DNA of 64,000 nt. Source: Schmidtea polychroa (Eukaryota). A model generated the notes under the pieces. The model searched no databases, was not told the DNA's origin, and saw only the letters and a list, made by a program, of their open reading frames with translations. Both the position numbers and the translations under genes were made by a program. This document shows, piece by piece, positions 57,103 through 58,481 of the stretch. The stretch is taken from assembly GCA_044892525.1 (NCBI GenBank), contig CM097885.1, positions 21,578,001 through 21,642,000 of the forward strand. Direction: 5' to 3'. Each line of letters begins with the position of its first letter. Position 1 is the stretch's first letter.

Positions 57103-58481
57103 TTAAAAATCTGTTTTCTGTAGTTCATTATTATAAAATCTACCTAATATTTTTTCATTATTTAAATCAATGATGCTATATGTTATTGGAGTTGTATAAT
57201 GTATTTCATTTATAATAAAAATTTCATTTGTCCATTTTGCTGTGAATCCTTTTTCAAATTTATTTTTATATTTAAATATTCTTACTCGGTCACCAATTTT
57301 AAACTTTGGTTTTTCAATAACATCATTTTCAACAGGATTTATGAGTTCCAAAGGATTCAAGGAAGCATTTAAAGGTGTTAAGTTTATAGAACTATGTACA
57401 TCATTATTATATTCATTTACAATCTTTTGTAACAATTCATTGTTCCATTTTTGTTTTCCAATAGCAGTAAAATATTTCCACATTTTATTTTTTAATGTTC
57501 TATTTAATCTTTCAACTACGACTGCTTTTCCTTCGTTTTCTGTTGAATATAATTTAATATCATTTTCATTTAAAAACTTTGTAAAACTTTGTTATAAAAT
57601 TCTGTTCCTTTATCACACCATAAATATTTTGGAATTCTTTGATATTCTTTAAATATATTTTCAAATGCTTCTGTAATAGAATATCCTGTTTTATTTTCTA
57701 AACACCTTGCAAAGGCAAATCTTGTATATAAATCTATTACTGTTAAAATTATTTTATATTTTTCAGGGTCTGATGATTTGGTTGGCATAAAGACTAAATC
57801 AGCAGACCATTTTTGATCTTTTTCATGTACTTGAACTTTTAAATATTTTTTATTTTTTCTAAATTCATGGTGTAATTCGTTGGCATATTTTATTTGTGAT
57901 TCTGTTGGGGTTTTTAAATTTGTAGAATCAAGGGTGTGATTCTCAGTGTCTGCTTGTTGAATAATCTTTTTATTAGCAATATCTTTTGCTATTCTAGGGT
58001 GTCCAGCTCCAAAGAAGACCTTACCTTTCATTGCTAATTTAACTAGAGCTCTTTGAATCTTTTCTCGAGTTGATGGATTTTCAATATTATTTAAATCATG
58101 AATTAAATTTACATCTGCTACATGTCTATCTCTAAGATTATTTGAGTTGTATGCAATGTCATGTTTTAAAGCTGCTTGATCAATTCTATTTATTGGTTCT
58201 TCTCCAGGTTTGGGATTATTATTTTCATCTAATCTAATATCCAATCTTGTTCCTGGTCCAGTATAGTTGTGTTTGAATAAATGTCTTTCACCTGGATATT
58301 TTTCAGTAGTAAAATGTTTTAGGATTGAAGATGTTGTTTTTGAAGATTGCAAATCGCCTCCAGCTCGTGGAATTAGGTCACCTACTGTATGTTTTTTAGT
58401 TTTAAGATGACTTGCTTTATGATGTCTTGTAACTTGACAATTACAAGTTTCACATCTCCAATAGGGTTTATTTAAAGACAT
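57103..58481 (-). CDS. Zn finger-PLA2-retroviral-type integrase fusion (one 1-nt frameshift near 57583; ~459 aa if corrected)
   Basis: CETC..H..KKH; YTGPG and DQAALKHDIAY..RHVAD; integrase WSADL, WCDKGTEF, and after the shift KAVVVERLNRTLK..YNNDVHSSI..FKIGDRVRI. Confidence 0.9.

Follow-up and report, generated by a model that had tools for sequence, protein, structure and literature searches.

A conserved phospholipase A2-integrase fusion in Polinton elements of Schmidtea polychroa, with relatives in which the two genes lie one base out of step

Structure and gene content of the element

The window, a 64,000 nt stretch of the Schmidtea polychroa genome (assembly GCA_044892525.1, contig CM097885.1, positions 21,578,001 to 21,642,000), contains a full-length Polinton/Maverick element of the adintovirus type, 14,924 bp in length (46396..61319), which begins with AGTAGT, ends with ACTACT and has a 6 bp target-site duplication, CTTGAC, on either side (46390-46395 and 61320-61325). 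Its terminal inverted repeats, delimited from the inverted-repeat arms I1-I9, extend over 46396..47305 on the plus strand and 60385..61319 on the minus strand, their inner ends being approximate. Together with these repeats and the duplication, the element has the protein-primed DNA polymerase B, rve integrase, capsid, ATPase and protease that characterise Polintons. No ATAAAC box was found within 60 nt upstream of nine of its ORFs.

The polymerase (47266..51741, plus strand; Pfam DNA_pol_B_2) occupies an open frame of 1491 aa from stop to stop, and a Pfam scan alone found no OTU-like domain at its N terminus at E<=0.1. After it come a small ORF of membrane type with two helices and a fibre-like ORF (51853-52434 and 52456-53445, minus strand), look-alikes of which, as judged by appearance, recur in relatives. 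The probable penton, or minor capsid, gene (53470..54216, minus strand) was assigned from its size and by-eye resemblance to the genes of relatives, having no Pfam match at the cut-off. Next to it is a cysteine protease of the clan CE type (54219..54674, minus strand), in which the His, Asp, Gln and Cys residues are present in an alignment with seven relatives; the profile of this family matches pS273R of African swine fever virus (ASFV; E 2.2e-05) and adenain (E 3e-05). The pX-like core protein of 201 aa (55586..56191, minus strand) was recognised through a weak Adeno_PX match (E 0.027). It contains six GG or GxG motifs, as against three in 1440 aa of the polymerase, and has a tandem repeat; its four G-K/R-G-L motifs, besides KEGG, are candidate protease sites. 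The remaining genes are an A32-like packaging ATPase (56207..57007, plus strand; Pfam Pox_A32), the double jelly-roll major capsid protein (58511..59803, minus strand; Pfam DJR-like_dom, E 3e-25) and, in the interval from the capsid gene to the right inverted repeat, a coiled-coil-like ORF of 76 aa (59881-60111, plus strand) with no family match above the Pfam cut-off.

The phospholipase-integrase gene

A minus-strand frame of 303 aa (58481-57573) encodes, in order, a zinc finger, a glycine pair, a phospholipase A2 (PLA2), a GAG motif and the start of an rve integrase. Both enzymes exceed their Pfam cut-offs: Phospholip_A2_4 (PF08398) scores 36.2 bits against 23.9 and is placed at aa 67-148, whilst rve scores 37.8 against 32.6 and begins at aa 219. 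The finger has the form C-x2-C-x11-H-x5-H (aa 10-31; 58389..58454), its ligands lying in CETC (aa 10-13, nt 58454-58443) and HLKTKKH (aa 25-31). It is followed by the first junction, RAGG|D (58353..58367; RAGG is aa 39-42, nt 58367-58356), and by the parvovirus-type PLA2 domain (58008..58283), which retains an intact YxGPG calcium loop (YTGPG, aa 73-77, 58265-58251), an intact HDxxY motif within DQAALKHDIAY (aa 101-111) and a second Asp. Beyond the second junction, FFGA|G (aa 156-160; 58002..58016), a linker leads into the N-terminal part of the integrase (57573..58001), with the first two catalytic Asp residues (57803-57795 and 57617-57606). A frameshift interrupts the integrase core in this copy, the 303 aa frame stopping after the second Asp; the rest of the integrase, including the catalytic Glu, is carried by 162 codons in another frame (57591-57106), within a C-terminal part (57103..57591) that has an SH3-like C-terminal domain and no chromodomain. 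The window copy could at most produce the leader and PLA2 joined to a truncated integrase.

A translation check placed the finger, RAGG, YTGPG, DQAALKHDIAY and FFGAG exactly where an earlier note on this DNA had put them, and the PLA2 and rve domains which that note expected were both detected in one frame, with matching folds on a model of a sister copy. It was also right that pX is a separate gene lacking PLA2 and that the protein ends without a chromodomain: in one Pfam scan there was no Chromo match in an unbroken sister ORF, and the integrases of four of four other relatives did match. The single uninterrupted frame that it described holds from the leader through the start of the integrase, but is broken in this copy after the second catalytic Asp. 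The four ligands of its C2H2-like finger are kept in 55, 55, 54 and 55 of 55 sister copies, but the finger itself gave no Pfam match at E<=0.1.

The unbroken sister ORF was modelled from a 34-row alignment (pLDDT 76.6, pTM 0.44). In the model, the finger region, with a helix at residues 19-32, a helical PLA2 and the integrase are independently placed domains, linked by low-confidence loops (aa 33-56 and 158-164) that coincide with the two junctions; the last PLA2 helix ends at Gly158. Fold comparison matched the integrase to that of foamy virus (Z 20.7, rmsd 5.4, 247 residues aligned) and aa 62-159 to rice PLA2 2wg7 (Z 7.1, rmsd 3.7, 88 aligned) and bee PLA2 (Z 5.5), both of these being middling scores. 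Residues 392-462 gave a weak match to SH3-like barrels (Z 5.7). Among the matches listed by Foldseek, there were integrases only.

Conservation among sister copies

The 781 Mb genome yielded 5570 candidate matches, of which only the 130 best-scoring were scored. PLA2 runs into the start of the integrase without a stop in 119 of these 130, a proportion biased towards intact copies because the best-scoring matches alone were used. Amongst the 30 best sister copies, 23 have an unbroken ORF of 446-471 aa that opens with ATG and closes with a stop; in L012, a stop falls immediately ahead of the integrase. Forty further stretches were added, picked for long open frames; PLA2 and both parts of the integrase share a frame in 67 of the resulting 70 copies, this figure being biased upward because of how the additions were picked. 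Sister copies do hold the two enzymes in one frame, as the earlier note proposed, and the 119 uninterrupted matches exclude a copy-specific accident or chance.

Selection was assessed in 55 of the 66 distinct ORFs, those spanning finger to C terminus, using pairs that are not independent. Values of pN/pS were 0.38 for the finger, 0.16 for PLA2, 0.12 for the integrase core and 0.24 for the integrase C-terminal domain, with less constraint in the two linkers (0.86 and 0.62) and in integrase aa 346-395 (0.74). The catalytic His, Asp and Tyr of PLA2 and the D, D and E of the integrase are invariant in all 55. These values indicate that both enzymes of the fusion are under purifying selection. Within the same ORFs, synonymous divergence is approximately 0.24 for PLA2 but approximately 0.07 for the integrase core, a gap that copies recombining with or homogenising one another might explain, as might the way in which they were picked. 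Across the 66 ORFs, the linker before junction 1 ranges from 1 to 92 aa. In L115, L120, L121, L131, L146 and L149 it has grown by tandem QDPSR and RNSP repeats; the repeat-expanded linkers, reaching as many as 92 aa, are always in frame. Longer fused forms of 810-2310 aa were absent from 416 candidates, which is weak evidence, and RNA from four runs of guessed origin gave short contigs of related copies, none of which spanned the PLA2-integrase gene.

Distribution in other elements

Both Pfam domains are present in 35 of 39 homologues, which are 38-89% identical over aa 40-260, and fusions account for 25 of 149 representatives at the 50% identity level. Hence the fusion is fixed in a high-copy Polinton family and kept across divergent elements. 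The leader is more variable: it may be the present finger, a ribbon of the DUF5679 type or a short tail, or be missing altogether; on these alignments, the zinc finger is a leader that can be exchanged, many relatives lacking it or having another in its place. Where fused and -1 loci extend far enough to show it (L031, L040, L048, L057, L066 and L090), pX is separate and lacks PLA2. The closest free-standing PLA2 proteins, P0094-P0096, are 66-73% identical to the PLA2 of the fusion and have a basic leader and GGD, ending at the junction-2 glycines. Two fused loci (L062:514-2499 and L069:3-1931) have an insert of about 245 aa between PLA2 and integrase, ending in a second GFGL motif directly ahead of the integrase. 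A search of a phage collection with the PLA2 of one relative found no match.

Relatives with the two genes in different frames

Profile-anchored comparison of 81 contig loci (L031-L111) identified 45 with a PLA2 tail no more than 800 nt before the integrase start. The two genes are in frame in 23 of these, at -1 in 19 and at +1 in three. The excess of -1 over +1 has a p value of 0.0009, which overstates independence because the loci are related. All 19 of the -1 loci have a slip heptamer, A_AAA_AA[A/C/T], in the PLA2 frame, as against none of the 23 in-frame junctions. None of the 19 has a Met before the first catalytic Asp, and the integrase starts past that residue in each of them, as it does in one published entry. 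Two, L096 and L102, shift elsewhere, after E-L-H.

Sixteen -1 sites were folded. At eight of them a hairpin lies 5-7 nt downstream, its z score between -2.1 and -4.3, where control windows averaged -0.4 to 0.65 and single windows reached -2.98; the other eight sites have no significant hairpin. The eight hairpins are of two unrelated types, and their loop indels occur in multiples of three. In the first type, 95.8% of cells pair, which beats slid partners (31-65%), and two of 12 pairs are changed on both sides; this covariation was not above a shuffle control, 107 of 500 shuffles being as high. The slip site is exactly A_AAA_AAC in nine -1 loci of one integrase clade, starred in our tree, and all eight of these that were folded have the hairpin at 5-7 nt (L048:6489, L050:1004, L052:222, L053:1092, L064:733, L070:5195, L086:1602 and L091:408). 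In these eight, and in L055, a DUF5679-PLA2 ORF is linked at -1 with an integrase ORF that has no Met. The capsid, ATPase, protease and pX genes of L048, L057 and L070 are otherwise open.

Some of the -1 cases may be errors, because the members of one subfamily (L063, L073, L080 and L093) have 0, -1 and +1 states differing only in the length of an A run; this variation could represent sequencing error or decay. Searches of viral contigs with protein queries found no further -1 loci, and a heptamer-hairpin pattern search of the same contigs returned 27 loci, none with PLA2 or integrase.

A quick IQ-TREE phylogeny of 69 integrase rows, midpoint rooted and with short or partial rows left out, intermingles the three frame states, with ten changes among them, five of these between -1 and in frame; it gives no order for these states. 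The in-frame L089 sits within the starred clade that holds the nine -1 loci. The window's family falls within a starred clade in which all ten rows are in frame, and the window's own gene has no -1 overlap between PLA2 and integrase, so the evidence for frameshifting bears on it by homology only.

Glycine motifs at the junctions

The GG of junction 1 is present ahead of DLQ in 57 of 66 sister ORFs, with five not parsed and four changed. In 82 fused relatives, of which 16 were not parsed and four lack the N-terminal end, a GG or GxG lies just before the D-x-Q start in 39 of the 49 with a leader longer than 4 aa; another 13, which have no leader, begin with Met exactly at the junction-1 point. 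These leaderless forms, which start at the predicted cut, are the best argument for processing that the sequences offer. At junction 2, the 66 copies have GAG (38), GLG (17), GAS (10) or GSG (1). The first Gly is kept in 55 of 55 spanning ORFs and the second in 46, and 68 of the 82 fused relatives (one row being mis-anchored) have GG|X or GX|G, with about ten having a G only. For comparison, nine GG/GxG motifs occur in 20,484 integrase positions. The spacer between this glycine and the E-L-H helix is 4-8 residues in many relatives and up to 248 aa in others, and the junction-2 motif is tandemly duplicated in several copies.

The earlier note had taken these motifs for protease-like sites at both junctions, with adenain as the model. 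They are conserved for the most part, although the second Gly of junction 2 is Ser in 10 of 66 copies. The adenain rule, quoted in the available text of PMC6048507 as (M/I/L/N/Q)XGG|X or (M/I/L/N/Q)XGX|G, fails at both junctions, where P4 is R and F respectively; across copies, the junction-1 P4 is R, S, K, F, I or G. Both junctions do fit, as a motif match only, the GG|X and GX|G of mavirus and ASFV-type proteases, and lie in low-confidence loops of the model. Nor are the glycines specific to the fusion: 21 of 23 PLA2-only ORFs, with no in-frame integrase following, carry the same flanking motifs. The junction-2 motif belongs to the PLA2 module, because these ORFs and the published PLA2X proteins end in it. 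Hence junction 1 is a well-supported predicted protease site, and junction 2 a possible but less well-supported one, the invariant Gly of which may instead have a structural role in ending the last PLA2 helix.

Comparison with known systems

The possible novelty of the fusion that the earlier note left to a search does not survive one, as at least two 'PLA2-Integrase' proteins, Adinto15303 and Adinto6405, are among 59 PLA2-labelled entries in the supplementary files of Buck et al. 2024 (PMC11071296; the two are in supplementary file 2). Both are in-frame PLA2-rve fusions, as in the window's family. Two closer look-alikes from the same source, uAdinto11140 and uAdinto15034, also share GGDLQ, a leader of Cys/His type and a junction much like the present one but are labelled 'Integrase'. 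The available portions of that article describe the adintovirus integrase as bearing a C-terminal chromodomain, which the window's family lacks, and propose slip sites for the penton and hexon-protease only; they contain no discussion of the fusion, of a PLA2-integrase frameshift, of processing or of population data, though a frameshift annotation may exist elsewhere. The integrase of another entry, Adinto13074, follows a PLA2 ORF directly and has its start past the first catalytic Asp, an arrangement which would fit an unrecognised frameshift. No such fusion is described in the available text of PMC3671162, PMC5803895, PMC4061559, 10.64898/2026.06.19.733378 or 10.1101/2023.10.06.561300, and searches of the open-access literature turned up neither a frameshift between PLA2 and integrase nor a model of how the fusion might be processed. 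The fusion is thus real, selected, widespread and already annotated, though not explained; the dichotomy between in-frame and -1 arrangements and the analysis of the junctions appear to be new.

As far as the available text of Starrett et al. 2021 (PMC8502044) extends, only PLA2X is described there, with a role in entry proposed for PLA2. PLA2X shares its PLA2 family and flanking GG/GxG motifs with the window's fusion, but has a pX-like domain after PLA2, where the window's family has the integrase and a separate pX. The closest studied relative is mavirus, the virion of which, according to the accessible parts of Born et al. 2018 (PMC6048507), holds an rve integrase, a predicted hydrolase and a clan CE protease that cuts at GG|X and GX|G, the hydrolase being split near GK|G. 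In mavirus, however, the integrase and hydrolase are separate genes, and the hydrolase is of the alpha/beta type rather than a PLA2. The VP1-unique PLA2 of parvoviruses (PF08398) has the same domain family and catalytic motifs as that of the window. It is tethered to a capsid protein, on the available text of PMC4642659, whereas the window's is tethered to an integrase.

A probable Gag-Pol-like precursor

We consider it probable, at roughly 60%, that this conserved PLA2-integrase fusion encodes a Gag-Pol-like precursor that is packaged and then processed by a protease. In the Gag-Pol of retroviruses and LTR retrotransposons, the integrase is a C-terminal extension of a virion protein and is freed by the element's protease, the precursor being made either through a -1 frameshift on X_XXY_YYZ with a downstream structure or in a single frame. 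Polintons differ in being dsDNA elements with a protein-primed polymerase, a jelly-roll capsid and no reverse transcriptase; their carrier would be a phospholipase, and their protease is a separate cysteine protease. Since PLA2 and integrase are fused here and are joined across a -1 slip signal in relatives, it is likely that the integrase is loaded into particles in a retrovirus-like manner. The PLA2 part would be the carrier that brings it there, and the enzymes would be freed when the protease that the element itself encodes cleaves the glycine pairs: a cut at junction 1 would remove the zinc-finger leader and expose the D-L-Q end of PLA2, and one at junction 2 would release the integrase. 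PLA2 might then break the endosomal membrane whilst the integrase accompanies the genome. It is analogy with mavirus and the parvovirus PLA2 that suggests packaging, cleavage and membrane escape here. In the -1 relatives, ribosomal frameshifting would give much free PLA2 and a little PLA2-integrase, and in the window's lineage the two would be made 1:1.

The polyprotein reading of the earlier note gains from the fixation of the fusion and the mavirus precedent, and the comparison with Gag-Pol is stronger than that note could tell, given the -1 slip signal across which relatives connect these two genes; it loses the adenain rule and the fusion-specific glycines. A more general proposal, the case for which we regard as evenly balanced, is that a Polinton group independently reached the logic of Gag-Pol, with a virion phospholipase as carrier and the integrase as an extension reached by a -1 frameshift or, after repeated switches, in frame, a protease freeing both. 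Membrane escape and integration would then be combined in one molecule, with the dose set by the slip site.

A PLA2-integrase precursor would offer a concrete, testable route by which a Polinton integrase could enter a new cell. The conserved GG/GxG sites around the PLA2 module are candidates for what the Polinton protease cuts. Should the -1 signal prove real, a group of dsDNA viruses would gain a frameshift of the Gag-Pol type, and many Polinton integrases would stand wrongly annotated in the databases, with a start placed past the first catalytic Asp.

It is possible, though unlikely, that only junction 1 is cut and that PLA2 stays as a permanent N-terminal domain of the integrase, serving as a packaging tag and standing in for the usual HHCC domain, with the Gly after its last helix as a helix cap. 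The replacement of the second Gly by Ser, the relatives with a G only, the spacers of 4-8 aa, which leave little room for a protease, and the end of the modelled helix at Gly158 all fit such an arrangement, as do free PLA2 proteins that end in the same motif, some stopping right after it; it sits poorly with the retention of GG/GxG in 68 of 82 relatives despite the rarity of such motifs in integrases, with their tandem duplication and with spacers as long as 248 aa. We think it distinctly improbable that the fusion acts inside the cell rather than in a virion, with the element spreading as a transposon and PLA2 helping the integration complex to arrive at, or pass through, the nuclear envelope or another internal membrane. 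That a single genome has candidate matches by the thousand would suit germ-line copying, and no virions were seen for Maverick-Polintons according to the available text of a 2026 preprint (10.64898/2026.06.19.733378). However, the window copy and relatives have open genes for capsid, ATPase, protease and pX, the published PLA2 of these elements is on a core protein in the available text of PMC8502044, and mavirus packages the equivalent enzymes (the accessible parts of PMC6048507).

Less probable again is mere coupling of expression, in which the integrase borrows the start codon of PLA2 and there is no co-delivery, the -1 cases being due to assembly errors, decay, splicing or RNA-polymerase slippage. 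The varying A run of one subfamily and the different shift position of L096 and L102 lean that way, but such coupling is hard to square with nine loci of one clade having exactly A_AAA_AAC at -1, with a hairpin wherever folded, with the open state of the other genes at -1 loci, or with the absence of the heptamer from every in-frame junction. A further point for coupling is that the integrase of many Polintons stands free and starts at a Met of its own. Separately, two apparently identical integrase ORFs were found 4.2 kb apart on one 9.8 kb contig (L061:3565-4584 and 7730-8749).
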